DNA of 64,000 nt from a virus (taxonomy: Duplodnaviria; Caudoviricetes). The stretch lies in the IMG/VR virus record IMGVR_UViG_3300042922_001473; one strand, 5' to 3'. Positions within the stretch are counted from its first letter, which is position 1; each line of letters begins with the position of its first letter. A program made the translations under genes and the position numbers. Under the pieces are notes generated by a model. It was not told where the DNA came from. It did no database searches and saw only the letters and a program-made list of their open reading frames with translations. Shown one piece after another: positions 2,253 to 61,618 of the stretch.

Positions 2253-2584
2253 TAAATTGTTGTATCAGTTAATAGATTAATCATATCTTTCTTGTAAATA
2301 TCTAAAAATTCCGAATAAGCTGTTTTGTATTCCTCTCCAAACTTCTCATACAAAAATTTTCGCCACTTAACATCAGCATAGGTTGAGCTAAAATCATACA
2401 TTATCTCATTTTTCACCGTTTCCCCAAATTTTATTGTAATATATAAATGTTCTTCTTTTTCGTCAAAATATTTACTTATGTGCATTGATGAAACATTTAT
2501 ATAAAAGAATTCATTTAAATCTTCTTTTTTTAGCCTTTCTATAAACATATATTTCTCCTCATTACTTAGAATTTTCTTCTTCAA
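2252..2584 (-). CDS. hypothetical protein
   Basis: 110-aa ORF overlapping the radA 3' end; start uncertain. Confidence 0.55.
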   Translation of the reverse strand: MKKKILSNEEKYMFIERLKKEDLNEFFYINVSSMHISKYFDEKEEHLYITIKFGETVKNEIMYDFSSTYADVKWRKFLYEKFGEEYKTAYSEFLDIYKKDMINLLTDTTI

Positions 2585-3974
2585 TTAGCTCTTTTTTGTT
2601 TCCGAACATTGAGACAATTACATCATTTAGAGTTTTAGCTTCAATAATTTTTATATCCGCATTTAATTTCTCTTTTAAATTCCCTTTTGGTATTACGACT
2701 GAAGCAAATCCCAATCGTGAAAGTTCTTTTACCCTACTTTCGCAATTTGGTATAATTTTAAGTTCTCCCGTAAGACCAACTTCACCTATAAATACTGTAT
2801 TATTTGGTATTGGTTTTTTATAATAACTTGATACCATTGACATAATTACACCAAGATTTACTGCTGGTTCACTAAGTTTTAAGCCACCCGTTACCATGAC
2901 GCTAACGTTTTTATCATAACAAGATAATCCACCTTTTTGACCTAATATCTCAACCAACATTTCTAACAAGTCTCTATTAATTCCAATTCCCCTTCTTGAA
3001 GGAAAACCGAAATATGATTTACTAATAAGACTTTCAATTTCTACTATAAAGTTTCTTGAACCTTCCCTTGTAACAGTTAATGCACTCCCTGAAATTGGAA
3101 TTTCTCTTTGAGTTGCGAAATATTGAGACGGATTATCAATTGGTTCAAGTCCCGTTGCTGTCATAATGAATAATGAAATTTCAGAGGTATCTCCGTACCT
3201 ATTTTTTGAACAGTATCCTTTTCTTAACTGTTCGCCCCTATCCCCTTCTAAATATATAACAGCATCAACAGCGTGTTCGAACACCATTTGACCAGCTAAC
3301 TGTTCGTTTTTATTTTGTTGTGCTATTATTAGAAAACTTCTTGGTCTATTCTTGTTTTTAGCAATTTCTACTATCTTATACGTAGATTCATTAACTTGGG
3401 TTGGACTTCCTGGTCTTGAATTAATTTCTTCAAGATACATTGTCTGAATAGAATCAATTACAATTAAATCTGGATTAATTTCATTAATATACTCTTCGAT
3501 TCTATTCATGCAGGTCTCAGAAATTATCCATAGATTATCATCAATATCTCCACATATCCTGTCAGCTCTACCTTTTATTTGAGTATCACTTTCTTCCCCT
3601 GATACGTATAACACTGTATGACCGCTACGACTAATATTGTTAACTATTTTAATAGCAATAGAGCTTTTCCCAGCTCCTGGCTGTGCTGTAAGTACATTAA
3701 CAGAATCTTTAACAATACCTCCCCCTAACATTCTATCAAACTCATTTATTCCTGTTTTTATTCTGTTAGTTTGACTAACCGATATTGTTTTTAACCTAAC
3801 TGGTTTAGTACCACTTGAAAGACCTTTTCTTCCTGCCATTGCAGTTGGAGCTTTACTTTCAATGTTTTCTTCCATTAATGTATTCCATTCATTACATTGA
3901 GGGCATTTACCCATCCACTTAATTTCTACATGACCACAATTACTACATCTATGTTGAGTTTTATTTTTTGCCAC
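2562..3974 (-). CDS. radA: DNA repair protein RadA/Sms
   Basis: C4 zinc finger, Walker A QPGAGKS, YVSGEES, VIDSIQT, KNRYG, Lon-like C-terminus; GTG start after GGAGG. Confidence 0.95.
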   Translation of the reverse strand: MAKNKTQHRCSNCGHVEIKWMGKCPQCNEWNTLMEENIESKAPTAMAGRKGLSSGTKPVRLKTISVSQTNRIKTGINEFDRMLGGGIVKDSVNVLTAQPGAGKSSIAIKIVNNISRSGHTVLYVSGEESDTQIKGRADRICGDIDDNLWIISETCMNRIEEYINEINPDLIVIDSIQTMYLEEINSRPGSPTQVNESTYKIVEIAKNKNRPRSFLIIAQQNKNEQLAGQMVFEHAVDAVIYLEGDRGEQLRKGYCSKNRYGDTSEISLFIMTATGLEPIDNPSQYFATQREIPISGSALTVTREGSRNFIVEIESLISKSYFGFPSRRGIGINRDLLEMLVEILGQKGGLSCYDKNVSVMVTGGLKLSEPAVNLGVIMSMVSSYYKKPIPNNTVFIGEVGLTGELKIIPNCESRVKELSRLGFASVVIPKGNLKEKLNADIKIIEAKTLNDVIVSMFGNKKELIEEENSK

Positions 3975-4154
3975 TATGTACCTCCAATTACTTATAAAAT
4001 TCATTAAAATATATTTCTTTATAAATATTATATCATATTAAATATAATTTGTAAATTGTAATTTACACATTTAAAATATTTGCACTTATTTAAATGTTTT
4101 AAAGAAAAAAATAAAAAAGACTAAATTTCTTTAGTCCTTTAAATTTCATGCTTA

Positions 4155-4344: not shown

Positions 4345-4977
4345 TTAAAATTTTGAAATATGCTTTGCTATTTCATAGCTATCTTGTGCAACAGTAAATA
4401 ATCCATTAATTGAAACATCAACAATGTAATCTTTTTTACTATTATTGTCATTGAAATTAAGTTTAATGAATCCATTTTCAGTTATTAAGTCAACAATAGT
4501 CCCAAACATTAATTCATTTTCTTCTAAATAATCAATAGCCTCTGCTGAGATTTCTAAACTTTCATATTTAGAAATTATTGCAAATTTACCTGGTATAAAT
4601 TCCTCTCTTTTTTGATTCATTTTATAATAATCCCAATCAAAAGTACCATCTTCTTTCATTCTTCCATATTTATAATATGGCGAACATTTTCTCATATATG
4701 CACTTTCAATTGTACCTCCAAGAACTGATTGTGAAAATCCATAGCAATTACAATTTACTGCATTGTCACAAGTAGGAGCTAATTCACAACTTCCACAACA
4801 CCTATCATCTTTATAGATTGAACATAATGGTTCGCCTTCTTTAGTTCTCCACTCTGGTAATTTATATCTATTTCTTGTTTCTGCACTATGACACGTAAGA
4901 ATGGTTTTTCGTCTTAAACCGTTTTTTTCATCATATCTATCTACAATCCTTCTTAAAGTATTAATAACAATTTTCAT
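4345..4977 (-). CDS. hypothetical Cys-rich protein
   Basis: C..CCGSC...C..CNC cluster, AGGAGG RBS. Confidence 0.65.
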   Translation of the reverse strand: MKIVINTLRRIVDRYDEKNGLRRKTILTCHSAETRNRYKLPEWRTKEGEPLCSIYKDDRCCGSCELAPTCDNAVNCNCYGFSQSVLGGTIESAYMRKCSPYYKYGRMKEDGTFDWDYYKMNQKREEFIPGKFAIISKYESLEISAEAIDYLEENELMFGTIVDLITENGFIKLNFNDNNSKKDYIVDVSINGLFTVAQDSYEIAKHISKF

Positions 4978-5935: not shown

Positions 5936-6986
5936 ATATTGCTTGTTGTACATTTATATGGTCAAAATCTGTATTTATATAATACTCTATTTCTTCTCGA
6001 TTCCAACTTAAAGACAATTCGCTATTTACTAATATTTTTAGATTGTTAATTTTATTTTCCTTTTTTATTTTTTCTCTTGCCATGCCATGTTGATTATAAT
6101 TAAATATAATAGGTGTAGATAATAAAAGCATTGAGTATTCTACAAAACCAAGAGTTTCCTTATTTCGTATAATTGGATAACTTGAAAAATAATTTTCTAC
6201 TGTGTGCCACAGACAATCATAATCTTCATTAGACAAAACATGTTCTCTGTTAAACTCTGTAACTGCATTAATAGTACTAAATGTATCTGTTTTCAATAAA
6301 GGACTAAATTTTATACTATCGCAATAGTCTTTAATTTGATTATAGAAACACAAGATATCATTAAGATTATCATTATTACCTTTAAAACAATTGTTATTTA
6401 TTCTTATGGATACATTCCCTTCATCTGCTATTTTCTTAAATGTTTTCAAATGTTCTAAACTTAAATACGTATTACTTCCTGATACGTACTTCTGTTTATC
6501 TTCATCTAAAGACATAACAGAAATATTCATATGTGTAATACCTGATGACATTAATTTTTTACAATAATCCATGTCTTTGCTCATTCTGTGACCATTTGTA
6601 GTAATACAGATTTTATTTAAATTAAATTGTTTTAAATACTCTATTATCTCAAAAAGTCCATCATATATTGTTGGTTCACCCCCAACTAATAAAACCTCTT
6701 TTACCCCCATATGCTCTATAGCATACTTTATTTTTTGTTTATGCTTATTTATATTACATATTTCTTTTTTATGAACTAATTGTGAAATACAAAACTTACA
6801 TTGTGCATTACAGTAGTCATTAAGCACTATGTCAAGATAAGGGTATGTGCTTAGTAAAAATTTCTTGCCTTTATTATTAAATTCCTCATAATCTACTTTT
6901 CTACATATTTCATATTGGCTAAATTTTGCATTTTGTTTTTCATCAACCATTCTTGATAAATTAAATATTTTCATAATTTCCTCCAA
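5934..6986 (-). CDS. radical SAM protein (MoaA-like)
   Basis: CNAQCKFC (CxxxCxxC), GGEPT, ITTNG motifs. Confidence 0.9.
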   Translation of the reverse strand: MEEIMKIFNLSRMVDEKQNAKFSQYEICRKVDYEEFNNKGKKFLLSTYPYLDIVLNDYCNAQCKFCISQLVHKKEICNINKHKQKIKYAIEHMGVKEVLLVGGEPTIYDGLFEIIEYLKQFNLNKICITTNGHRMSKDMDYCKKLMSSGITHMNISVMSLDEDKQKYVSGSNTYLSLEHLKTFKKIADEGNVSIRINNNCFKGNNDNLNDILCFYNQIKDYCDSIKFSPLLKTDTFSTINAVTEFNREHVLSNEDYDCLWHTVENYFSSYPIIRNKETLGFVEYSMLLLSTPIIFNYNQHGMAREKIKKENKINNLKILVNSELSLSWNREEIEYYINTDFDHINVQQAI

Positions 6987-7119
6987 TAAACTAAATTAAA
7001 AATTTCCCTTAATTATATAAATATATAGTATTATATACGAGCAATCTCACATTTATTTTATTAAATAATATAGAGATTTGATTATTATTTTGTTATAATA
7101 GATTGAGAGGGGTGGTTTA

Positions 7120-7836
7120 TTGAAAAATTTATTTGACATGATAATTGACAACAAGCAAATTGAATTAAGAGACATAACTACAATTGATGATTATATAAAA
7201 ATTATTTGTAGCAATAATTTAAAATCTATTCAAGGCTATAATATAGTTAATAAATTTCCATTTAATGATGATTTCTCAAATATATATTATACATATTTAA
7301 TAAATTATTTTTCATTGTATAAAGAAGATATATGTAATTATATATTAAAGCAAAATCATTCTGAACAAATATTTGAATCCGAAATAGTAATGCCAGATAA
7401 TGAATCTTATATAAGATATTTATTTCCAGTAAAAAATGCGAAAGAGCTTATTTCTAAAAATAAAATACCTGCTAAAAAAATGTTAACGAGTGAACTTTAT
7501 GAATTTTCAAAAATTGCTGACATAACTAATAAAAAATCTAACAACAATAGTCCTGTTGTATTATTAGAATATCCATATGCTTATCCTGGATTTTTTGTAA
7601 TTGACGGTAATCATAGAGTTTATAAAGCAATATGTAATAATATTAAAGAATTAGAAGTTTATTTAATGCCTTCAAATGGGTTATACTTATTATCATTATC
7701 TCAGTTTTTTAACCTTTTGTATCAAGTTCATTCAAATTTAAGTGAAATAATGCTATATATGCGAGGATTTATTTCTATAAATACATTAAAAGCTAATTAT
7801 AATCAAATTTCTACAGAATCGTTTAAAGTGACATAG
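7120..7836 (+). CDS. ParB/sulfiredoxin-like domain protein
   Basis: PVVL...VIDGNHRVYKA motif. Confidence 0.55.
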   Translation: MKNLFDMIIDNKQIELRDITTIDDYIKIICSNNLKSIQGYNIVNKFPFNDDFSNIYYTYLINYFSLYKEDICNYILKQNHSEQIFESEIVMPDNESYIRYLFPVKNAKELISKNKIPAKKMLTSELYEFSKIADITNKKSNNNSPVVLLEYPYAYPGFFVIDGNHRVYKAICNNIKELEVYLMPSNGLYLLSLSQFFNLLYQVHSNLSEIMLYMRGFISINTLKANYNQISTESFKVT

Positions 7837-10304: not shown

Positions 10305-12260
10305 TTATACACATGAATCTATAACAAATAATCCATCACTTAATTCATCAAGAAATAAAGAAGTTGATAATGATTTGTACATTTGTGTCATAAATCCAAT
10401 ATCAGACATATGCAAATACTTCCTTGCTCTTGTCACTCCTACATAAAACAATCTTCTCTCCTCTTTTAAGTCTTCTGGTAATATAGACCTGCTACTTGGG
10501 AATACTTCATCATTTAGATATGGCATAAAGACACAATCCCATTCCAAACCTTTTGCTTTATGGATAGTTGAAATAACAACCTTATTATCGTCTTCTTCTT
10601 CACTTTCATTTACTTCTTGTTCATCAAGTATCATTTCGCTTAAAAATAATGTTAAATCTTCATATTGTTTAGATATGCTAACTAAATATTCAATATCTTT
10701 CATTCTATCTGAATAATCTTCTTCCGTTCTTTTTAAATAATCATCATAGAATTTAAAAAGAATAGTAGATAACATTGCGTGAATATCAGTTTTATTAGCA
10801 TAAATATCTCTTAATAATTCAACCACCATATTAAATCCTGGTATAGCTCTACTTGTCAATTTAACTTTGTTAATATCTAAAGAGTTTATATCATAATCAC
10901 TACTTTTATAATGATTAAATATTTTCTCAATTGTCTTTTCCCCTAATCCATCAAACATTCCAAACATTCTAAGAAATGCACTTTCGTCTTGTGGGTTTTC
11001 AATAAAAGTAAGGAAACTTAATAAATCTTTTATATGTTTTCTTTCAAAAAATGAAAATCCAGATAATAATTTATACGGTATAGCGTATTTTCTAAATGTT
11101 TTTTCGAGTATTCTTGTAAGGTAATTTGCCCTTATAAGAATGGCAATATCTTTATATGTCATACCATCCTTTATATGAGATTTTATTTTTTTTACAATGT
11201 ACTCAGCTTGTTCAATATCATCAAAAGCTTTAAAAAAAGTAGGTTTATTTTTAGCTTTTAAATACGGTGTTATTTTTGTTTTGTTTATACTACAAATATA
11301 ATTGCGATTTATTGAGTCTTCTGCAAGTTTTAATATGTATGCATCTGAACGATAATTATAGGTAATATTAAATTTTTGATTATTCTTAAAGTTTCTATGA
11401 AAATCTTCAATATAACTAACATTAGAGCCTCTCCATGAATAAATCGCCTGATTAGGGTCTCCAACAGCAAACAAAGTATGATTTCCTTTATTTAATAGAC
11501 AAAGTATTTCATATTGCAAGTGGTTCGTATCTTGAAATTCATCACAAAGAACATATTTAAATTGAGAGTTGATTCTTTTTCTAATATTATCAATTAACAA
11601 TATTTCTTTAAAGTTTACAAGCAAATCATCAAAATCCATTGCGTTTGAATCTTTTTTCTTTTTCTTATATTCCTCAATTATTTCTTCAATACCTGACATT
11701 ACTTCTTTAGTAAAATTTCTTTCATCTCTATTTAATTGGTCATACGATTTATCAAGATTTATAGCACTTGAATAAAAAGCATAAATTATTTTTGTTTCAG
11801 GAAATTCACTTTTTTTAATTGAGTGTTCTTTTAAATATTTATTTCTACACTCTGTAATAAGAGATTTTGCATCATCAGGAGTTAAAATCGAATAATTTCT
11901 TCCAAACCCAATAACTTGTGCATATTTTCTTAAAAACAATCCTGCAATATGATGAAATGTTCCAGCCAACACTCCTACTTTTTCTTTTTGAAGAAGTTCT
12001 TTTACTCTCTCTATCATTTCATTGCCAGCTTTTTTTGTAAAAGTAAGAAGCATAATGTTATTTTCTTGTACCCCTTTTGATATTAATTGAGCTACTCTAT
12101 GTGTTAATACTCTTGTTTTTCCTGAACCTGCACCTGCATTTACACATGTGTCGCTATCTTCTGCCAAAACAGCTTCTACTTGGTCATCGTCTAAATTATT
12201 GGTCAATTTATATATATCAATCCTATTATTTTCATTTAGAATGCTTTTATCTGTTGACAT
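10305..12260 (-). CDS. UvrD/PcrA-like SF1 DNA helicase
   Basis: AGAGSGKT, TFT.KA, DEFQD, VGDPNQAIY, NYRS, STIHKAKGLEW, EERRLFYVGVTRA. Confidence 0.95.
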   Translation of the reverse strand: MSTDKSILNENNRIDIYKLTNNLDDDQVEAVLAEDSDTCVNAGAGSGKTRVLTHRVAQLISKGVQENNIMLLTFTKKAGNEMIERVKELLQKEKVGVLAGTFHHIAGLFLRKYAQVIGFGRNYSILTPDDAKSLITECRNKYLKEHSIKKSEFPETKIIYAFYSSAINLDKSYDQLNRDERNFTKEVMSGIEEIIEEYKKKKKDSNAMDFDDLLVNFKEILLIDNIRKRINSQFKYVLCDEFQDTNHLQYEILCLLNKGNHTLFAVGDPNQAIYSWRGSNVSYIEDFHRNFKNNQKFNITYNYRSDAYILKLAEDSINRNYICSINKTKITPYLKAKNKPTFFKAFDDIEQAEYIVKKIKSHIKDGMTYKDIAILIRANYLTRILEKTFRKYAIPYKLLSGFSFFERKHIKDLLSFLTFIENPQDESAFLRMFGMFDGLGEKTIEKIFNHYKSSDYDINSLDINKVKLTSRAIPGFNMVVELLRDIYANKTDIHAMLSTILFKFYDDYLKRTEEDYSDRMKDIEYLVSISKQYEDLTLFLSEMILDEQEVNESEEEDDNKVVISTIHKAKGLEWDCVFMPYLNDEVFPSSRSILPEDLKEERRLFYVGVTRARKYLHMSDIGFMTQMYKSLSTSLFLDELSDGLFVIDSCV

Positions 12261-14159: not shown

Positions 14160-16856
14160 TTATGCAGTTTGTTTTACATAATCAATTCTTTGTATGCCTT
14201 CAAGTTCTGTAACAAAACCCATACAACTATTTACTTTTCTTCCTCCACCATACGAGCTATAAGTTATATATAATTCACTTTTAGCCCTGGTGATTGAAAC
14301 GAATAATAATCTTCTTTCTTCGTCACGTTCTTTATCTCTAATTTGAGTTCCTGTATACTTGTATTTATTTATTGTATTAATTACAACATCAAATTCTTTA
14401 CCTTTTGAGCTATGAGCTGTCGTTAATACGACTGCTTTAAATTTAATATTGTTTACTTCTAAAGTTTTTTCATCTTTGTATAAAGCAAACTTTATCAAAT
14501 AGTTTATCAAACTATCGAATGATTTAAACTCTTTATCTCTTAATACCTTTGTGAACTCAGCCACAGCTTTATCTTTAGTAGCAATTGAAGCAATTGTTTT
14601 AAAGAAAAACTCTATCTTTTGTGCATCGGTAGTTAAAGCATAAAAAGTTTTTACGAAATTGTTTCTGTAATGACCTACAAAATCTTTTAATTCTAATGAA
14701 CTCATTTCTTTTATCGTATCATTTTTAAACATTAATAAATATTCTAAAAGATTAAGTTCTAACTCTGGATTATTTAAGAAGTTTGCAAAGGACAATATTA
14801 CTTGAATATTTTTATTATTAAGCAACAATTGTGTTACATCCATAACAGCAGGAATGTTTTTAGCGTCAAATATGTTTTTTATCTCAAGAAGTTCCTTCTT
14901 AGTTCTTGCAATTATTGCAATCTCTTCTGCTTTAACCCCTTGGTCTAATTTTTCTTTAACAATTTCAGCTATATTTTCATATTCTTCCTTCTTTTCAAAG
15001 TAATGAATCAACTTAGGAAGTTTTCCTGATGCTTTTCTACTTATCAAATCCTTATCTACTCTGTTTTTATTCTTTTGATTTAGCAAGTTTGCAGTTCTTA
15101 TGATTTCAGGTGTTGACCTAAAATTATCTACAAGGTTTATATCTTTAGCACTTTTGAAAAACTCATTAAAGTTTAATATAAACTCTTGAGACACATTTCT
15201 AAAACTAAATATTGATTGACTATCATCTCCAACTACCATTAAAGATTGAAATTTTCCTTGCTTTACAAGTAAGGTTATAATCTGCAACTGATTGTAGTCG
15301 GTATCCTGAAATTCATCTACCATTATATGCTCAACAGTGTATTTGCGTAAAGTTTCAGGGTAAGCTCTAAATATCTGCAAAGTATAGTTGATTTGGTCTT
15401 GATATTGAAGAAGTGAATTTTCTATCAGGTCTTCATTAAATATTTGATATAAATTCCAAACACCTTCAGCTACTATAACTGTACAATTAACATCCTTAGC
15501 AAATTCTTCGTAATTTAAGTAGTTATTAGCTTTGATTTTGTCAAAGTAACTATCTACAAGAACTACTGCACCTTTTGCATATGGTAAATTCATTAAAGGA
15601 TTTTTATAATCAAGTCCCTGTATTTTGGGATAACTTTCAAGCAATTGGAAAATAATATCATATCTTTCTACCTTTTCAGCTAATAGTGGTTTACTTTCAA
15701 ATCCAAGTTTCTCAAACTCTTCACTTATTATTCTCTCACCAAAACTATTGAATGTAAATATATTCATTTTATCCACATCAATATGCTCTAATTTAAAGTG
15801 TTTTAACCAATAAGAAACTTTTTCTTTGATTTCAACTGCACCCTTATTTGAGAATGTAATAAGTAAAATATTTTCAGGTTTTGTTCCTTTTTTAAATAAA
15901 TTTACAACTCTTAATGCCAATACAGATGTCTTCCCTGCACCAGCTCCTGCATTAATTCTTACGATACCACAATCAAACTGAACTGCTTTTTTCTGGTCTT
16001 CTGTAAGATGAATTGTTCCGTTAGGTGACTTTTCAATAACTTCTACAATATCTAATTCTGTTTCTGTCTTTTCTTCATAATAACAAATTTTTGAAAAACT
16101 ACATTTTTCGCAATTAGATTCATCACAAGTTTTTTCTGAATTAAAAGAAAGCTTTCTATTAAGTATTTCAAATATTTTGTTATCAATATACTTAATATAC
16201 GCTTCGTCTTCGTCAACTTCATTAACAAAATGATAATTAATTATGTTATAACCTTTTTTAAATTCAAATAGCTCTTGAAACTCCCTTGAATTATCTCCTT
16301 TACTCTGTAAGTGATAATAACTTGCTGTTACAGGTTTGTCTTTATATAATTCTTCACCTAATTTTTGAAGCATGTAAAGCTCAATGCTATATTTGGGATT
16401 AGTTTCATACTTTTGTCCTCTGTAAGATAATTTAGGTTCACCTTTTTTATATTTAACCACTTCAATTGTTCCTTTGTTTTCAAATATAATATCTGCTGAT
16501 ACTGTAATTTCATTTCCTTGATATTGTACAGCTTTTGTAATATTTTTCATTAAAACCTTTCGATTAAATAATTGTTCATATTCAAAATATCTTACAAGTT
16601 GTTTAGTCAAAAGTTCAATTTCAGCAATTTTTTCGTCTTTAGAAACGAACATGCTTTCATCAACAAGCTTTTCTAATGAAGCAGGTATTGTAGTTAAATC
16701 ACCATTTTTAATATCAAAATCTCTAATAAAATTTTTAATTACTATAGAGAGTTCATAATGTTTGTTTTTAAGAGATTTTAAATTTACGCCTTCTAAAAAA
16801 CCTCTAACTTTACATTTATCAATGCTCACTATATCCTTTAATTTTGCTTGTACCAT
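14160..16856 (-). CDS. UvrD-like helicase with N-terminal degenerate PD-(D/E)XK (Cas4/AddB-like) domain
   Basis: AGAGAGKT, DEFQD, VGDDSQSIF, NFRS, TAHSSKGKEF, EERRLLFVSITRA; N-terminal ADII...VVKYKKG...C....CEKCSFSKIC. Confidence 0.85.
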   Translation of the reverse strand: MVQAKLKDIVSIDKCKVRGFLEGVNLKSLKNKHYELSIVIKNFIRDFDIKNGDLTTIPASLEKLVDESMFVSKDEKIAEIELLTKQLVRYFEYEQLFNRKVLMKNITKAVQYQGNEITVSADIIFENKGTIEVVKYKKGEPKLSYRGQKYETNPKYSIELYMLQKLGEELYKDKPVTASYYHLQSKGDNSREFQELFEFKKGYNIINYHFVNEVDEDEAYIKYIDNKIFEILNRKLSFNSEKTCDESNCEKCSFSKICYYEEKTETELDIVEVIEKSPNGTIHLTEDQKKAVQFDCGIVRINAGAGAGKTSVLALRVVNLFKKGTKPENILLITFSNKGAVEIKEKVSYWLKHFKLEHIDVDKMNIFTFNSFGERIISEEFEKLGFESKPLLAEKVERYDIIFQLLESYPKIQGLDYKNPLMNLPYAKGAVVLVDSYFDKIKANNYLNYEEFAKDVNCTVIVAEGVWNLYQIFNEDLIENSLLQYQDQINYTLQIFRAYPETLRKYTVEHIMVDEFQDTDYNQLQIITLLVKQGKFQSLMVVGDDSQSIFSFRNVSQEFILNFNEFFKSAKDINLVDNFRSTPEIIRTANLLNQKNKNRVDKDLISRKASGKLPKLIHYFEKKEEYENIAEIVKEKLDQGVKAEEIAIIARTKKELLEIKNIFDAKNIPAVMDVTQLLLNNKNIQVILSFANFLNNPELELNLLEYLLMFKNDTIKEMSSLELKDFVGHYRNNFVKTFYALTTDAQKIEFFFKTIASIATKDKAVAEFTKVLRDKEFKSFDSLINYLIKFALYKDEKTLEVNNIKFKAVVLTTAHSSKGKEFDVVINTINKYKYTGTQIRDKERDEERRLLFVSITRAKSELYITYSSYGGGRKVNSCMGFVTELEGIQRIDYVKQTA

Positions 16857-17035
16857 TTTGGCACTTCCTTTCACTATGTATTTTTTAAAAATCCTGTTTT
16901 ATATAAAATCTTTATATTATACTTTAAATAGCCTTCAATTATAAATAATAAGAATTATATCTGTTCAGTTATATTTGTATTAATCTGTCATTTTTTATTT
17001 ATATGGACTATAGTGTTTACATTATAACCGTATTG

Positions 17036-24837: not shown

Positions 24838-25920
24838 TTAATCATTGTATCTATATCTATCTACTGTCATTTCATTTATTAGCATTATTAAATTTTTAGC
24901 CTTATCTGTATCTATATCATCTCTTAAAGACGAATTATCAAAGGCATAATTCATTTCTTTAACTAAGTCTTCATAAAATTTAAAAATATCCGTAATAGCA
25001 TATTTTTCGCTTCTAATATCAGTTAAAAATTCAAAATCACCAGATTCTTTTCTGGATGTAATAATACCTTTCCCATATAATATTTCAGTACACATTTTAA
25101 TCAATTTGATTATATACATAGAGGGTTTAAACAAATCATCTTCATTTTTCTTTTCATTTTTCTTTTTATTCCCTATTTTATTATATCTATTTACAACACA
25201 ATTAGCTGAACTTAACAAAGCTTCTAAATCTTTTAAAGGATACTTAGTAAAATTTGCATCAACAAATACTTCATTTTGAATGTCATCCCGTAATGATTTA
25301 TCAATATATAGCTTAATATCTTCACCTATTTTAAGTTTTTGGCTTGCTTTATTCATTGTGTCTTTTAATGTTTTCATTACAGATTCAAGCATTCTTTCTT
25401 CTTTGGCAAATTGCGATATATTGTTCTTATTAAGAGCTTTTTGAATCAGGTGAAACTGACTTTCTGCATATTTTCCAAAAGTGAAAATAACCTTTTTAGT
25501 TAAAAATATGTCGATATTGTCTCTTAATAGCTTACTTTCTGGCGTTTCTAAAAAAATTTTCTCATTTGAAACACCCATCAAATCAAGTATAGTTGGATTA
25601 GCATTGTACAGTAACTCTGCATATTTGTTGAAATAGTAGATAGTTGTATCTGTTTCAACATCTACCACTTGTTCTTTTTGATTGTCTTTAAGAAAAAGTA
25701 AATTTGACTTAGGATTAAAACTAATTCCTCGAAAATCTACATCGGAAGGTTTTTCTCCATCTCTTAATTCAATCTTATTCGTATCGTAGGCATAGCTACC
25801 ACCTAAGCACAAATACATTAAGCCTAAAGGAAAATTTTCTTTATCTCTTAAAAAATCATAATCAGACGTTATTAATAAATCCTCAAATTCTTTTCTTGTT
25901 TTAAATATTTTATCTATCAT
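24838..25920 (-). CDS. DNA polymerase beta superfamily nucleotidyltransferase
   Basis: GGSYAY.TN...SDVDFRG, NANP..LD signature. Confidence 0.85.
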   Translation of the reverse strand: MIDKIFKTRKEFEDLLITSDYDFLRDKENFPLGLMYLCLGGSYAYDTNKIELRDGEKPSDVDFRGISFNPKSNLLFLKDNQKEQVVDVETDTTIYYFNKYAELLYNANPTILDLMGVSNEKIFLETPESKLLRDNIDIFLTKKVIFTFGKYAESQFHLIQKALNKNNISQFAKEERMLESVMKTLKDTMNKASQKLKIGEDIKLYIDKSLRDDIQNEVFVDANFTKYPLKDLEALLSSANCVVNRYNKIGNKKKNEKKNEDDLFKPSMYIIKLIKMCTEILYGKGIITSRKESGDFEFLTDIRSEKYAITDIFKFYEDLVKEMNYAFDNSSLRDDIDTDKAKNLIMLINEMTVDRYRYND

Positions 25921-49483: not shown

Positions 49484-50479
49484 CTATGCGATTTTTTTAC
49501 TCTTAATTAAGTAATCATTATTTATCACTTTCATTGATAAGTTAGAACATAATATTTCGCTATAACAAGGTATCATTGGAATTATAACTATGCCCTCTCT
49601 TTGATGATTTGAGCTTTCGTAAACACCTTTAGCAAGTTCTAACAATTCTTCTAATGTGAATTCAAATGTAACATTCAGCTTCATAGGCACATGCTTTAAC
49701 CCATACTTTTTACAGAAATCAATTAATTCTTCAGGGCTTAGATATGACTGAGTATCATTATTAAATATTCTAAACACGAATAATTCATTTTCTTTTAATC
49801 CTAACTTATTTTTCATTATCCCAGGACCTGCTATTTCTCCTTGTATAGAATAATTCCCTGCCTTTTTCAATATTTCAATAATATTATATTTCTTTTCCAT
49901 TTTCCAGTAAACACTATTTTCGTCTTTCAATAAGCTATGTGTATGACTGCATACATGGTAATCATCATTATTCTTTATGTAAGAAGCTGAATACCCGTCT
50001 ATTTTTGTTGTAATTGCTACTTTTTTACCCATAAATTCATCTATAAGTTTTGGGAATGATTGTACTCTTTCTTCACCTGTTTTACTTACTATAGTTGGGT
50101 GATAACCTCTTGATACGCCTATCATTTCTTCTGGAAATTCATCCTCATATTTTTCAACACCAAGCAACTCAGTTACATCTTTTCCTTCAAAAATCTCTGT
50201 ACTTGTTGGAAGAATATCGGTTGTCCAGCATAACCCTTGTGATAACTGCCCACGAAGTCTAAGAGTTTTTAATCTGTAATTATTGATTGCCATATATTCA
50301 AATTCAGGTATTTTAGGTAATATACTATCTATTTCAAAGTATATACATAAATCCCCTTCTTTAAATTGTCCTTTCTTTACTACACATTTCCAACCTAATA
50401 TTGTAGCTATATCTAATGTATCAGCATTAAAATGTGGTACAAGTTTTGTAATTTTCTGAATAGATGCTAACTTTCGCAT
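49484..50479 (-). CDS. RNA ligase, DRB0094/Rnl5 family
   Basis: MRKLASIQKI, GWKCVVK, YFEIDS, LRGQLSQG, KIDG (motif I), QGEIAGPGI, REGIV, KVINNDYL. Confidence 0.9.
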   Translation of the reverse strand: MRKLASIQKITKLVPHFNADTLDIATILGWKCVVKKGQFKEGDLCIYFEIDSILPKIPEFEYMAINNYRLKTLRLRGQLSQGLCWTTDILPTSTEIFEGKDVTELLGVEKYEDEFPEEMIGVSRGYHPTIVSKTGEERVQSFPKLIDEFMGKKVAITTKIDGYSASYIKNNDDYHVCSHTHSLLKDENSVYWKMEKKYNIIEILKKAGNYSIQGEIAGPGIMKNKLGLKENELFVFRIFNNDTQSYLSPEELIDFCKKYGLKHVPMKLNVTFEFTLEELLELAKGVYESSNHQREGIVIIPMIPCYSEILCSNLSMKVINNDYLIKSKKIA

Positions 50480-57959: not shown

Positions 57960-58307
57960 AATTAAATAATTTCTCCTATTTTTTATTTTATATATTCAGT
58001 TATGTGATAATTTTGCTATTCATTTAAAAATTCGATTACACAAAATATCAAATATATTATGAAAGCAACTACTACATCTCCCCAAATTACCTTAAAAAGT
58101 AATTTTAAAACCTCTAATATTTCATAAAATGTCATTTTTATATTTCAGTTTTTCTCCTGTTCAAATTGTTATATTTAAATAGCTCCTATTTATTATTTTT
58201 ATTATTATATGTATAATACTGAGATTAATAAAGTATCAAAACAATAATTAAGTGAATACCCCCTCTACTTATTAAACCTTAGTAGTTATGAAGGTATTCA
58301 CTTATGA

Positions 58308-59513
58308 TTAAAGTTCATAATTTGAAATTGTATTTCTTGAAGCTCCATAACTTAAATATCCTTCATTAAAACCTACACTATTAAATGTATCAGTAATAAA
58401 TTGTTTAATAGACGAAATTTTTTCTTTTGAATTAGTTATGTATTTTGCTTCATTATTTATCTGGTCTAAGCAAGTTATCGCAAGTTTTGCATTAAAGTTT
58501 AGACTTTTTGCATATTTTAAGTCATTTCGTATGGTTTTTCCAAGTAAATCTATATCAAGTATTCCAAATCTTAATGTTCCTTGATATGGATTTGGCACAT
58601 TTGTCAAATCTATAATCTTTTCATATGGTTTATTTCTTGTTTCAGTCGGGAATGTCCCTACACCATGTCTTGTAAGGTACGCTCTTGTAACATAAATAAT
58701 TTCTATATCTTCTTTTTCAAATCCTATTCTATTTATGAGTTCTACTACATTTTTAATGCCTGTGTTTGAACGGGTGACATATGGGAAATACTCATGTCCC
58801 TGGTCGAGCATTAATCCCTGTGCTCCCTCAAATATAATATTATCAAATTCTTGTAGGATTCCAATGTCTCTCACTTTAATTTTATCCAACATATTGTTAA
58901 TGTCATATATATAATTCTCTATAATTCCTTCGTTATTAAGTAAAGAACAATATCTTTCAGGTACAGAAGATACTCCTAAGTTATAAAATCTATTCATATT
59001 ATATTGTTCTTTGATTATAGCTAACTTTTCTCTTAGTAATTGTTCATTAAATAAATCATTAACAGTTATTTTGAATTTTTCATCTTCTAAACTTCTTGTA
59101 ATCGTCTCATTAAAACCAAGACCACAACTTCCATGTTTTAAATTTCCTCTAAACGCTTCAACAGCTTGATTAATAATCATATCAAAAGGGGTAGTTACAA
59201 TACAATTTTTATCAACATAAACAATAGGGTTTACTCCTAAACTATTTAGGCTATTAATTTCTTTTTCAAAAGTCATTGGATTAACAACGAAGTATTCGCT
59301 AAGATAAGTAGGTTTGCCAGTAAAAGAACCTGCACCAAAATGCCCAAACACATGTCTCTTACCATCAGGAGTTTCTATTGTGTGACCTGCTTGTGCTCCC
59401 CCATTAAAGCGAACAACTATAGCATTTTCTATTCCTGCTGATAAATAATCAGTCATTAACCCCTTTCCTTCATCTCCAAAATTGCTTCCTATGACTACTT
59501 TTATATTTTTCAT
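58308..59513 (-). CDS. adenylosuccinate synthetase-like protein (divergent PurA family)
   Basis: FGDEGKG, RFNGGAQAGHT, FEGAQG, PYVTRS, TRHG, ITCLD; Asp-binding loop altered. Confidence 0.85.
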   Translation of the reverse strand: MKNIKVVIGSNFGDEGKGLMTDYLSAGIENAIVVRFNGGAQAGHTIETPDGKRHVFGHFGAGSFTGKPTYLSEYFVVNPMTFEKEINSLNSLGVNPIVYVDKNCIVTTPFDMIINQAVEAFRGNLKHGSCGLGFNETITRSLEDEKFKITVNDLFNEQLLREKLAIIKEQYNMNRFYNLGVSSVPERYCSLLNNEGIIENYIYDINNMLDKIKVRDIGILQEFDNIIFEGAQGLMLDQGHEYFPYVTRSNTGIKNVVELINRIGFEKEDIEIIYVTRAYLTRHGVGTFPTETRNKPYEKIIDLTNVPNPYQGTLRFGILDIDLLGKTIRNDLKYAKSLNFNAKLAITCLDQINNEAKYITNSKEKISSIKQFITDTFNSVGFNEGYLSYGASRNTISNYEL

Positions 59514-59553
59514 AATTAACCCCCTCTTTTTCTCTTAATAGAAGGAAGTTAGG

Positions 59554-60477
59554 TTAAAACCTAACTATACCTCCTGCAGTATCTATCTTACTTAAAGAAC
59601 TAACCGCTTTTTCCACAACCAATGAAGTTGAACCATCCCAGCTCTTAATAACTTTGTCTGTGTCAGCTCCATTTTCTATTTGTAGTGTAGAAACAATGAC
59701 CTCTGCTAACTTAGTATGGTCAGATAGTCTTATAGCTCTTTGACCTAATAATTCTGTCCAAGCATTTACCACTTGCTCTCCTCTACTTCTAAAATAATTA
59801 CCATTTTCGACCATAATATGATAAACTTCATATTGCCTTGATACCATTGTTAATAATTCTTGTACTTCAATCTTATCAAATTGTGGTTTAATTCCAAATA
59901 CTCTTTCTATATCACAACCTCTTAAATAAGGTGTCGGAAGTTCATCTCCAATAGTAAATAAGTATCCTTTCTTTCCACGCTTTTCAAAACTATCAATTCT
60001 TGTATACATTGAAGCAAAGTACCAAGCTAAAGCATATGATTCATAATTATTTCCTCCACCACCCTTTTCAAGGTAAATTTTAGATAATTGTTCGGCAATA
60101 CGAATATCTGCTTCAAATTGTGTTGCTTGAAGTGGTGCTCTATCTCCTTCCTCTACATCTCCAATACCTAAAAACATGATATGTGGGTCTGTAATCGGTT
60201 TTCTGTTATATACTTCTGTTGCAAGTGTTTTTAATCCATCCCTTGCCATTACATCAAGTACTGAACCCATTGAACCCGTAACATCAAGTGCTACAATAAG
60301 TGGACTTGATAATGGGTTATCTACTGAATCACATGATTCTCTCATTTTAATATCTTTCGGGTTTAAATCTTTATCAATATTTTTTGCAGTATAAATTTCT
60401 TCAACAGTAGCCTTTCCTATTATATTTTTAGTTGCATACCTTACCCAGTCGCTTTCTTTCCATCTTCCTTCACCCAT
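59554..60477 (-). CDS. vWA domain protein
   Basis: LDVTGSM MIDAS, QFE.D, GGGGN..ESY, TIGDE. Confidence 0.85.
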   Translation of the reverse strand: MGEGRWKESDWVRYATKNIIGKATVEEIYTAKNIDKDLNPKDIKMRESCDSVDNPLSSPLIVALDVTGSMGSVLDVMARDGLKTLATEVYNRKPITDPHIMFLGIGDVEEGDRAPLQATQFEADIRIAEQLSKIYLEKGGGGNNYESYALAWYFASMYTRIDSFEKRGKKGYLFTIGDELPTPYLRGCDIERVFGIKPQFDKIEVQELLTMVSRQYEVYHIMVENGNYFRSRGEQVVNAWTELLGQRAIRLSDHTKLAEVIVSTLQIENGADTDKVIKSWDGSTSLVVEKAVSSLSKIDTAGGIVRF

Positions 60478-60483
60478 AATTTA

Positions 60484-61527
60484 TTACCTCCTATTATTTT
60501 TATTATATAATTCTTCTTTATTAACAATCATTTCAATAAATTTTCTTTCTCCAAAGCTTTCTTCTAAGACTTTTCCCCATTTTGAATATTCTTCTAATGC
60601 ACTTTTTGATGATGAAGTACCTCTTAACCAATTCGTTAATGGAAGGGGGATATCATTCATTTGTACTAATTTTGTTCCATTCTTATCCCCTAAAAGCTCT
60701 CTTCCAATCATTCTAACAGATTCTAAATCTGTCAATAAGCTACCATTCTTCTTGTTTTTTATATGTGGAGGCATAATAGTGTAGATTTTTTCTGGCACTC
60801 CTATCATTTTCTCCCCTTGATTTACTGAATACCACCACCCACCTAAAAGAACTCCACTATGATATTTTGGTGATATGAAATATGTTTCTAATGATATTGC
60901 ATTATGAGATATTCCTGAATAATCAAAATAGCATAAAAGATTGTATAAACTACTTAGTATCCATGCCACATGTCGAGGTGAAACTCTTTCATCATAATAA
61001 TTAAAAATATCTTTTAAAAGGAATACATCTGGTGTTTTATCTATAATTAATCCAATTTTATAATCAATTGTTTCAAAAGTCGCTTTTATTTTAGGAAGAT
61101 ACCTCGATATTTCTTTTTCCATATTCTCATTTGCATACTTAAAATCATTGATTGTTCTTTTAGCATTTTCAACTAAATCACTATTTTTCTTGTCTACTAT
61201 AAAAGCTACTGAAGCATCACCTACATACATTGTTCCTAATTCAAAAGAATGAGATTTGTGATACTTTATTTCATTTACATTACCATTTACTCCTGATAGC
61301 TTTATAACTCCTGGTTTTTTATATGTGCCAGTCCTAATCATCTCAACACATTCGTTATAAAGTTTATTAACATTCGCCATTACTTCATTTGATTCTTTTG
61401 AATTGCTATTTAAATCAGGATGCCACTGTTTAGCTAATTGTGAATACTTCAGTTTAATTTCATTTATATTGTCAGAAAATAACTCACCAGCTTCTTTAAT
61501 ATTTAATATTTCACTTGCAGATAACAT
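60484..61527 (-). CDS. J-domain fused to protein-kinase-like (pseudokinase) domain
   Basis: Y..LAKQWHPD; HVAWIL...GISHNAIS...LLGGWWY. Confidence 0.8.
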   Translation of the reverse strand: MLSASEILNIKEAGELFSDNINEIKLKYSQLAKQWHPDLNSNSKESNEVMANVNKLYNECVEMIRTGTYKKPGVIKLSGVNGNVNEIKYHKSHSFELGTMYVGDASVAFIVDKKNSDLVENAKRTINDFKYANENMEKEISRYLPKIKATFETIDYKIGLIIDKTPDVFLLKDIFNYYDERVSPRHVAWILSSLYNLLCYFDYSGISHNAISLETYFISPKYHSGVLLGGWWYSVNQGEKMIGVPEKIYTIMPPHIKNKKNGSLLTDLESVRMIGRELLGDKNGTKLVQMNDIPLPLTNWLRGTSSSKSALEEYSKWGKVLEESFGERKFIEMIVNKEELYNKNNRR

Positions 61528-61551: not shown

Positions 61552-61618
61552 TGATAATATCGTTTTGTTATTATCTATTTGATATTATCATTATAATACT
61601 AATTATATTATATGTCAA
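61552..61618 (-). promoter_or_regulatory. consensus promoter with triple operator
   Basis: TTGACA-N17-TATAAT (61618-61590); TGATAWTATC-like palindromes at 61552, 61566, 61580. Confidence 0.6.

Follow-up and report, generated by a model that had tools for sequence, protein, structure and literature searches.

A stretch of Caudoviricetes DNA of 64,000 nucleotides (IMG/VR record IMGVR_UViG_3300042922_001473; this whole stretch is referred to below as the window) contains three neighbouring genes, encoding a protein with a J domain and a protein-kinase fold (P0001), a vWA protein (P0002), and a homolog of the adenylosuccinate synthetase PurA (P0003). Which reaction might a PurA-family enzyme carry out in the company of two such partners, and in what cellular setting? 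A preliminary description of the locus, made from the nucleotide sequence, had proposed an uncharacterised GTP-dependent ligase or a conflict system. Here we find that the three genes are conserved together in bacteria and viruses, that the PurA-like protein has kept the core residues of its family with substrate loops that are rebuilt family-wide, and that relatives of the trio adjoin genes of nicotinamide adenine dinucleotide (NAD) and ADP-ribose metabolism. This last linkage is the strongest contextual clue to function, and was absent from the preliminary description. Taken together, we give roughly even chances to the trio being an accessory module of NAD/ADP-ribose-linked nucleotide metabolism, in which a GTP-dependent ligase using a nucleophile other than aspartate works with dedicated vWA and Hsp70-recruiting partners; the likelihood of any one particular substrate is distinctly low.

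A gene trio conserved in bacteria and viruses

Seeding with an alignment of the vWA protein, we collected 80 bacterial and 80 viral loci, in which genes were called with hidden Markov models of the three proteins; this seed was far more productive than a single PurA-like sequence, with which a viral scan returned only two loci. The PurA-like gene accompanied the vWA gene in 156 of the 160 loci, nearly always directly downstream, and three of the four loci lacking it are cut by the end of the locus. The gene for the J-domain/kinase-fold protein (hereafter J-kinase) was identified in 114 of the 160 vWA-seeded loci. The full trio is present in 69/80 bacterial and 42/80 viral loci, with the vWA/PurA-like pair only in a further 9 and 36 loci, respectively. 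Such joint conservation lies far beyond chance, and agrees with the mention in the preliminary description of similar gene trios elsewhere.

Carriers of these genes include Clostridia, Lachnospiraceae, Geobacter, Geomonas, Competibacteraceae, Massilia, Acidobacteria, Melainabacteria, Roseomonas and Paenibacillus. Among cultured phages, the vWA protein matched 219 records and the PurA-like protein 238, with respective counts of 200 and 201 for phages of Mycobacterium, 10 and 10 for Rhizobium, and 6 and 6 for Vibrio. The same trio was recognised in mycobacteriophage Colt as gp251-253, annotated as ‘serine/threonine kinase’ (gp251, which possesses the HPD motif of J domains), hypothetical protein (gp252) and ‘PurA-like adenylosuccinate synthetase’ (gp253).

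Also identified, in 16 viral loci without a J-kinase gene, was a family of about 236 amino acids encoded directly upstream of the vWA gene (e.g. L170:5288-5998, L155:5252-5983, L148:5065-5973 and L130:5151-5807). The family has no significant Pfam match and no Atlas name, and alignment to the J-kinase profile gave no support for a kinase without a J domain (hhalign probability 0.1%). It may replace the J-kinase gene functionally.

The PurA-like protein has rebuilt substrate loops

P0003 matches the Pfam family Adenylsucc_synt (PF00709; E = 4e-52) and can be aligned to structures of E. coli PurA. To examine its substrate sites, 152 PurA-like sequences from the survey were aligned to a canonical Clostridium PurA. 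Residues of the family core are retained throughout: GDEGKG and the catalytic His are each kept in 148/152 sequences, the Gln of EGAQG in all 152, and the guanine-specifying Asp in 138, as is the C-terminal S-x-G-x-x-R motif. Conversely, N38 is replaced by Gln in 147/152 sequences, the IMP loop GTTG has become GSCG family-wide (Ser in 146/152, Cys in 140/152; GSCGLG in P0003), TRVG has become TRHG (His in 151/152), and TKxD reads T(C/H)xD. The aspartate loop TTGRxR has been replaced by a lengthened T-N-x-x-N-x-(F/Y/W)-Q-G-x-L-R, in which only the last Arg is retained; in P0003 this loop reads TNVPNPYQGTLR instead of G-x-T-T-G-R-x-R-R. In E. coli PurA, the threonines and arginine that are lost here hold the aspartate, and the changed Thr and Asn contact the 5'-phosphate of inosine monophosphate (IMP). 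Since the core residues are kept and those of the aspartate and IMP loops are changed, the phosphoryl-transfer machinery and GTP specificity look intact, and the second substrate is predicted not to be aspartate; a difference on the phosphate side of the nucleotide is possible as well. The proposal in the preliminary description of a GTP-dependent ligase using a non-aspartate amine can thus fairly be inferred from the kept core and the rebuilt loops, and all of the motifs on which it drew were recovered, both in P0003 (GDEGKG, AGHT, EGAQG, GSCGLG, TRHG and TNVPNPYQG) and in P0001 (HNA and GGW, with HPD also present).

Could P0003 instead be an ordinary adenylosuccinate synthetase, or a PurZ serving the synthesis of 2-aminoadenine DNA? 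Its Pfam family, its membership in PHROG 1211, which is labelled PurZ-type, and the name ‘adenylosuccinate synthetase’ given to its relatives in databases would all accord with such an assignment. However, P0003 scores well below the cut-offs of the curated PurA equivalogs NF002223 (156 bits, cut-off 402) and TIGR00184 (139 bits, cut-off 396), and of the PurZ model NF038379 (52 bits, cut-off 300). Further, the P-loop Asp, which is Ser in PurZ, is kept, in agreement with the preliminary description, which had set P0003 apart from PurZ on this residue. A canonical PurA (596-636 bits against Pfam) was found to coexist with the paralogue (127-178 bits) in four of four trio-bearing bacterial genomes, and the PurA-like gene therefore represents an extra paralogue rather than the housekeeping enzyme. 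None of purB, datZ, mazZ or dpoZ was found among called neighbours within 10 kb. With these scores, the family-wide replacement of both loops and the presence of a normal purA in the same genomes, assignment as plain PurA or PurZ was rejected, and we regard it as scarcely credible. Although P0003 shares its fold, family and core motifs with PurA (EC 6.3.4.4; 1ADE, 1KJX) and PurZ, and is like PurZ a phage-carried paralogue with a changed substrate site, neither of these enzymes is paired with a vWA protein, without which the PurA-like gene is almost never found.

A departure in length was observed in Paenibacillus, where the PurA-like gene (L086:6983-9292) encodes 769 amino acids and possesses an intein-like insertion near the N-terminal catalytic region; residues 72-387 match Pfam Intein_splicing with 30.2 bits, below the cut-off of 35.8.

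Genomic context points to NAD and ADP-ribose metabolism

Neighbouring open reading frames (ORFs) of all 160 loci were clustered, and cluster representatives annotated. The commonest bacterial neighbour is NrtR, consisting of a Nudix domain and the NrtR winged helix, which is adjacent in 36/80 bacterial loci, either co-directional just upstream or divergent across 60-180 bp; many bacterial loci comprise NrtR and the trio alone. NrtR operators are 21-bp palindromes, from which the regulator is freed by ADP-ribose (PMC2330246). In divergent promoter regions between nrtR and the trio we identified 21-bp palindromes, with a second palindrome nearer nrtR. Such sites were located in intergenic regions across L034-L092 (e.g. 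L041:3448-3468 and L082:4517-4539). In Competibacteraceae and Massilia they are TTATTTG-N7-CAAATAA, exemplified by Competibacteraceae with related sites in Massilia, and TGTTATT-N4-AATAACA; the Acidocella divergon possesses a different 23-bp palindrome, CTTAGAC-N9-GTCTAAG, which occurs twice. The core bases of these candidate NrtR operators differ from the published GT-N7-AC. In their adjacency to nrtR and the palindromes of their promoters, relatives of the trio resemble the NrtR regulons of Rodionov et al. 2008 (PMC2330246). Under NrtR regulation, Table 1 of that study also gives two paired genes without an explained role, nrtX-nrtY, found in Proteus, Hahella, Streptomyces, Kineococcus and Frankia. 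Four of the loci surveyed here (L060, L065, L071 and L081) consist of exactly nrtR divergent from a vWA and a PurA-like gene, and nrtX-nrtY may correspond to this pair.

Other neighbours belong to the same area of metabolism. The Clostridium beijerinckii-type gene order is NrtR, Prs-like, PncA, NAMPT, in some strains PARG, and the trio, the microbial PARG being placed between NAMPT and the J-kinase gene (L027:4067-4894). In a Lachnospiraceae locus (L077), PARG (6375-7271) and a radical-SAM/Nudix/NrtR fusion gene are found downstream of the trio, and in three Lachnospiraceae loci (L073, L075 at 4378-4944, and L083) a DUF4291 gene lies between nrtR and the trio. A Legionella survey of ADP-ribosyltransferase (ART) families (PMC12522546) reportedly names DUF4291 25 times. 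Among viruses, the vWA/PurA-like pair is placed between NMNAT-Nudix and NAMPT genes in several loci (L130, L155 and L170), and a NAMPT-family gene was identified in 14 of 50 trio-bearing viral records; of the 28 records with a completeness of 90% or more, 6 have one. Relatives of the trio thus stand in a string with prs, pncA, NAMPT and NMNAT-Nudix, reminiscent of NARP2 (NAMPT and NMNAT; bioRxiv 10.1101/2024.02.11.579819), although, in contrast to the components of NrtR regulons and NARP2, none of the trio proteins is a described NAD enzyme. NARP3, which comprises PnuC and NadR, was considered and rejected, its description being without the trio genes.

No description of the trio module was found in the literature on PurA-like, PurZ, vWA, J-domain, NrtR and phage topics, and the NARP1/2 preprint, the NARP3 paper, a jumbo-phage survey and a survey of NAD and ADP-ribose functions in viruses contain no PurA-like gene in such a setting. 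The L077 fusion gene (L077:7213-9480) is itself of note, as its 755-aa product combines a radical-SAM/HemN-like region with Nudix and NrtR winged-helix domains, an unusual constitution for an NrtR-type regulator.

The vWA and J-domain partners

P0002 is the best conserved member of the trio, with 60-75% identity to relatives from several phyla. It corresponds to no Pfam or NCBIfam family, the Pfam vWA models all falling below significance; it belongs to PHROG 2971 (E = 9e-47), a family of unknown function, and an Atlas search returned only ‘hypothetical protein’ clusters. Exhaustive phmmer searches retrieved 1656, 1141 and 491 clusters (50% identity) at E <= 1e-3, 1e-10 and 1e-30, respectively. 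Nearly all of the 150 best relatives are single-domain proteins of about 300 amino acids, and no fused forms were found among them. The AlphaFold2 (AF2) model of P0002 (predicted local distance difference test, pLDDT, 84) adopts a Rossmann-like vWA fold, and its Foldseek matches include integrin I domains and the vWA domains of RGLG and NorD. A metal ion-dependent adhesion site (MIDAS) of the form D-x-S/T-x-S ... S/T ... D is present, its residues (DVTGS, S147 and D178) being invariant in the family alignment. The model shows little order over the N-terminal 30 residues (pLDDT 52-59), which are nonetheless conserved in sequence: nearly all of the 160 loci encode a vWA protein that starts with Met-Gly, the pattern MGxG(R)W..DW..Y is present in 146/160, and a mycobacteriophage homologue of only 32% identity still begins MGSGAW.

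The arrangement of a MIDAS-bearing vWA protein next to an enzyme and a chaperone-commanding protein recalls the MoxR AAA+/vWA pairs (CbbQ-CbbO, NorQ-NorD, RavA-ViaA and CoxD-CoxE), and the NorD vWA domain of one such pair is among the structural matches of P0002. Unlike the MoxR adaptors, the vWA protein of the trio represents a distinct family lacking a Pfam model. MoxR pairs possess an AAA+ protein, whereas no AAA+ gene was found in the operon or among recurrent neighbour clusters; the chaperone link of the trio is its J domain, and the motor would accordingly be host Hsp70.

In P0001, the J domain is genuine, as the preliminary description had supposed. The protein scores 28.8 bits against Pfam DnaJ (cut-off 27.8), the region is helical in the AF2 model, and the HPD motif at residues 36-38 is kept in 111/113 family members. 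The remainder of the protein adopts a bilobal kinase fold (pLDDT 94.5) with Foldseek matches to PKA, VRK1, VRK3, STK10 and DYRK1A at probability 1.00 (E about 1e-6 to 1e-8 for PKA, VRK1/VRK3 and STK10); a human J-PKA chimera ranks first, with the pseudokinase VRK3 also placed high. The canonical catalytic residues are missing. No beta-3 Lys is conserved across the 113 family members, the HRD Asp is Ala in P0001 (within HNA) and Gly or Ala in 88/113 relatives, with Asp in only 18/113, the position five residues further, Asn in active kinases, is Thr in P0001, and the DFG position is occupied by GGW in 112/113 members. The reading of HNA and GGW as marks of a degenerate kinase domain is thereby upheld, and P0001 joins a J domain to a kinase fold that lacks these residues. 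Its nearest known counterparts are phage J-domain proteins and the human DNAJB1-PRKACA (J-PKA) fusion, with which it shares the order of the two domains; J-PKA is an active kinase resulting from a tumour deletion, whereas P0001 is natural, ancient and catalytically degenerate.

The preliminary description had also noted that vWA and kinase modules occur in Ter-type stress systems. The TerY-P triad of such systems consists of a vWA protein, a Ser/Thr kinase and a PP2C phosphatase. Beyond the adjacency of a vWA and a kinase-fold gene, a resemblance with no search match behind it, this relation was not borne out: PP2C and Ter genes are absent from the called neighbours and recurrent clusters of the trio, and its kinase fold lacks the catalytic aspartates and is joined to a J domain.

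Proposed function of the trio and alternative explanations

In the mechanism that we propose for an accessory module of NAD/ADP-ribose-linked nucleotide metabolism, the PurA-like enzyme would use GTP to phosphorylate the oxo group of a nucleotide. This nucleotide may be IMP, or a larger one that bears hypoxanthine or an oxo group, for instance an analogue of ADP-ribose or NAD. The phosphate would then be displaced by an amine other than aspartate, ammonia or a small neutral amine being the simplest candidates. The vWA protein may use its MIDAS metal and conserved flexible tails to bind the enzyme or a client, and the J-domain pseudokinase could bring host DnaK (Hsp70) to assemble, activate or recycle the complex. 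By analogy with other vWA adaptors, which are served by MoxR ATPases, DnaK would act as the motor. In bacteria, relief of NrtR repression by ADP-ribose would switch the operon on when NAD is broken down, and in phages a module placed beside NAMPT/NMNAT salvage genes might keep adenine-nucleotide and NAD pools up during infection.

Several observations weigh against this proposal. A vWA partner and an Hsp70 co-chaperone would be surprising requirements for an ordinary metabolic enzyme. Furthermore, the vWA protein is more conserved than the PurA-like enzyme, which hints that it is more than an adaptor. The candidate NrtR operators were proposed on the basis of palindromes and not of a validated profile. 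Among the 28 near-complete (at least 90%) trio-bearing phage records, 22 lack a NAMPT-family gene, and the enrichment of this gene over the 5.4% of sequenced phages that possess NARP1 or NARP2 (bioRxiv 10.1101/2024.02.11.579819) is a rough and soft comparison, as large phages carry more such genes. Also, tblastn searches of the 64-kb window detected no homologue of NrtR, NAMPT or NMNAT-Nudix, nor of the 236-aa family; with none of these NAD genes within 64 kb, the NAD link of this particular locus comes from its relatives.

A wider view takes the trio as a new enzyme machine, in which a GTP-driven ligase of the PurA fold would act on a substrate brought to it by the vWA protein, attaching a purine nucleotide there or re-aminating one, powered by a pseudokinase-Hsp70 cycle and serving as a response arm to NAD cleavage in bacteria (through NrtR) and large phages. 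We judge this unlikely as a whole; within it, the substrate could possibly be the N-terminal Gly of the vWA protein itself, yielding a protein-nucleotide adduct. A related explanation, raised as a possibility in the preliminary description, is a protein-directed ligase, which would join a purine nucleotide to a protein amine, most obviously the free alpha-amine of that same Gly after removal of Met, or else a client held by the MIDAS, with the J-domain pseudokinase and DnaK presenting or releasing the modified protein. It would account for the near-universal Met-Gly start and the MGxG(R)W..DW..Y pattern, persisting even in distant mycobacteriophage homologues, for the flexibility of this conserved segment in the model, and for an aspartate pocket in which the arginines have given way to Asn, Gln and aromatic residues; chaperone-type partners likewise point to a protein substrate, and PARG and the ART-like DUF4291 gene adjoin the trio in some loci. 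However, a conserved tail could equally be a docking peptide, fused forms are missing among the 150 best vWA relatives, and we know of no PurA-family enzyme that modifies proteins, which together leave a protein-directed ligase decidedly improbable. More doubtful still is a NadE-like amidation on the PurA scaffold, whereby the carboxylate of nicotinate mononucleotide (NaMN) or nicotinate adenine dinucleotide (NaAD) would be phosphorylated by GTP and ammonia would replace the phosphate, giving nicotinamide mononucleotide or NAD. Counted in bonds, the carboxylate oxygen of NaMN is as far from C1' as O6 is in IMP, the loss of dicarboxylate-binding residues suits a small nucleophile, and the placement among PncA, a NAPRTase/NAMPT-family gene and NMNAT-Nudix under NrtR would be fitting. 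Set against these points, NadE is present in four of four trio-bearing genomes checked, which weakens the case, the family keeps the purine-reading residues as well as the catalytic Asp by which N1 of IMP is deprotonated, no role is left for the vWA and J-domain partners, and many bacterial loci hold only NrtR and the trio.

The conflict system envisaged in the preliminary description fared less well than its ligase. In such an anti-phage defence system, the vWA protein or the pseudokinase would act as a sensor controlling an enzyme that makes a toxic or signalling nucleotide, in keeping with the patchy distribution of the trio, its evident horizontal transfer between bacteria and phages, and its nucleotide-modifying chemistry. 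Predicted anti-ADP-ribosylation conflict operons with vWA chaperones are also headed by NrtR-type regulators (PMC9503650), although the ARG-centred NrtR/vWA operons of that study, in which the vWA chaperone is only sometimes present, were set aside as a different system. Contrary to expectations for defence, no family of PADLOC-DB 2.0 matches any of the three proteins at E <= 0.01, some 220 cultured lytic or large phages carry the module, its proteins are highly conserved and not fast-evolving (as seen for the vWA protein across phyla), and the bacterial neighbours are NAD salvage genes, headed by the NAD regulator NrtR, and not defence genes. We therefore hold a role in defence to be very unlikely.

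A metabolic role beside NAD salvage would place the trio within a central front of the conflict between phages and bacteria, namely NAD depletion and its reversal. Here a conserved and unannotated set of genes shares operons with known genes of NAD salvage and reconstitution, in bacteria of several phyla, where NrtR is predicted to control it, and is carried by about 220 cultured phages, including the much-used cluster C mycobacteriophages. Once known, its reaction would probably bring to the PurA family a chemistry new to it, as happened with PurZ, and could account for the dependence of an enzyme on a vWA protein and an Hsp70 recruiter of its own. Such work could draw on tractable material in mycobacteriophage gp251-253 and the Clostridium operons.

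Operon organization and the host element

The coordinates of the three ORFs, and the gaps of 6 nt (P0001/P0002) and 40 nt (P0002/P0003) that separate them, reproduce exactly the tight three-gene operon of the preliminary description, all genes being arranged head to tail (Table 1). Its report of a dedicated promoter and terminator was also supported at the sequence level. A predicted sigma-70-type promoter is located about 60 nt 5' of the first ATG, that of P0001; as promoter-like matches overall in this AT-rich stretch are not above the level of shuffled sequences, only this 12/12 match carries weight. Downstream of P0003, a simple consensus scan called no terminator, having missed, because of its long loop, a hairpin with a folding energy of -22 kcal/mol (z = -4.3) that no shuffle out of 200 matched in stability, with a U-rich tail after it. 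The leader possesses, downstream of the -10 box and ahead of the Shine-Dalgarno sequence, an inverted repeat with perfect 9-nt arms, GATAATATC ... GATATTATC, which occurs once in the window and in 0/100 shuffles; the operon leader RNA folds with -11.5 kcal/mol (z = -3.2). Judging from its sequence, the repeat could be an operator or a leader hairpin, and it differs in form from the 21-bp palindromes found among relatives.

Table 1. Features of the trio operon and example genes of the surrounding element, with coordinates in the window.
Feature	Coordinates	Strand	Basis
P0001, J-domain/kinase-fold gene	60484-61527	minus	347-aa ORF, first of operon
P0002, vWA gene	59554-60477	minus	307-aa ORF, second of operon
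P0003, PurA-like gene	58308-59513	minus	401-aa ORF, third of operon
J domain, P0001 residues 1-65, with HPD motif	61333..61527	minus	Pfam DnaJ
Protein-kinase-fold domain, P0001 residues 66-347, catalytically degenerate	60484..61332	minus	AF2 and Foldseek
vWA-fold protein with MIDAS (DVTGS ... S147 ... D178), N-terminal Met-Gly and conserved C-terminal tail	59554..60477	minus	AF2, Foldseek
Predicted PurA-family GTP-dependent ligase paralogue with rebuilt substrate loops	58308..59513	minus	Pfam Adenylsucc_synt
Predicted sigma-70-type promoter, TTGACA-17-TATAAT	61590..61618	minus	12/12 consensus match
Leader inverted repeat, 9-nt arms and 19-nt spacer	61553..61589	minus	Candidate operator or leader hairpin
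Terminator-like hairpin followed by U-rich tail	58249..58304	minus	RNA fold
Example window genes of phage-like element	14160-16874, 10305-12260, 2562-4004, 49484-50479, 24838-25920

With a G+C content of about 26%, the window comprises many small ORFs without family matches, together with genes for two phage-type DNA helicases, a DnaB-like helicase, an RNA ligase, a nucleotidyltransferase and radical-SAM proteins. The trio proteins are also encoded on contigs of up to 534,699 bp, and the closest relatives of the trio are found in Clostridia. We tentatively read the window as a piece of a very large, AT-rich element, either a phage or phage-like, whose host would be clostridial.

Two further genes were observed in the vicinity of relatives. 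One, present a few kb downstream of the trio in 13 viral loci (e.g. L112:8769-10307), encodes a protein of 512 amino acids matching DUF2828, DUF7788 and vWA_2; the other is a TROVE-domain gene, annotated close to the vWA/PurA-like pair of Vibrio phage phiKT1024 (L001).

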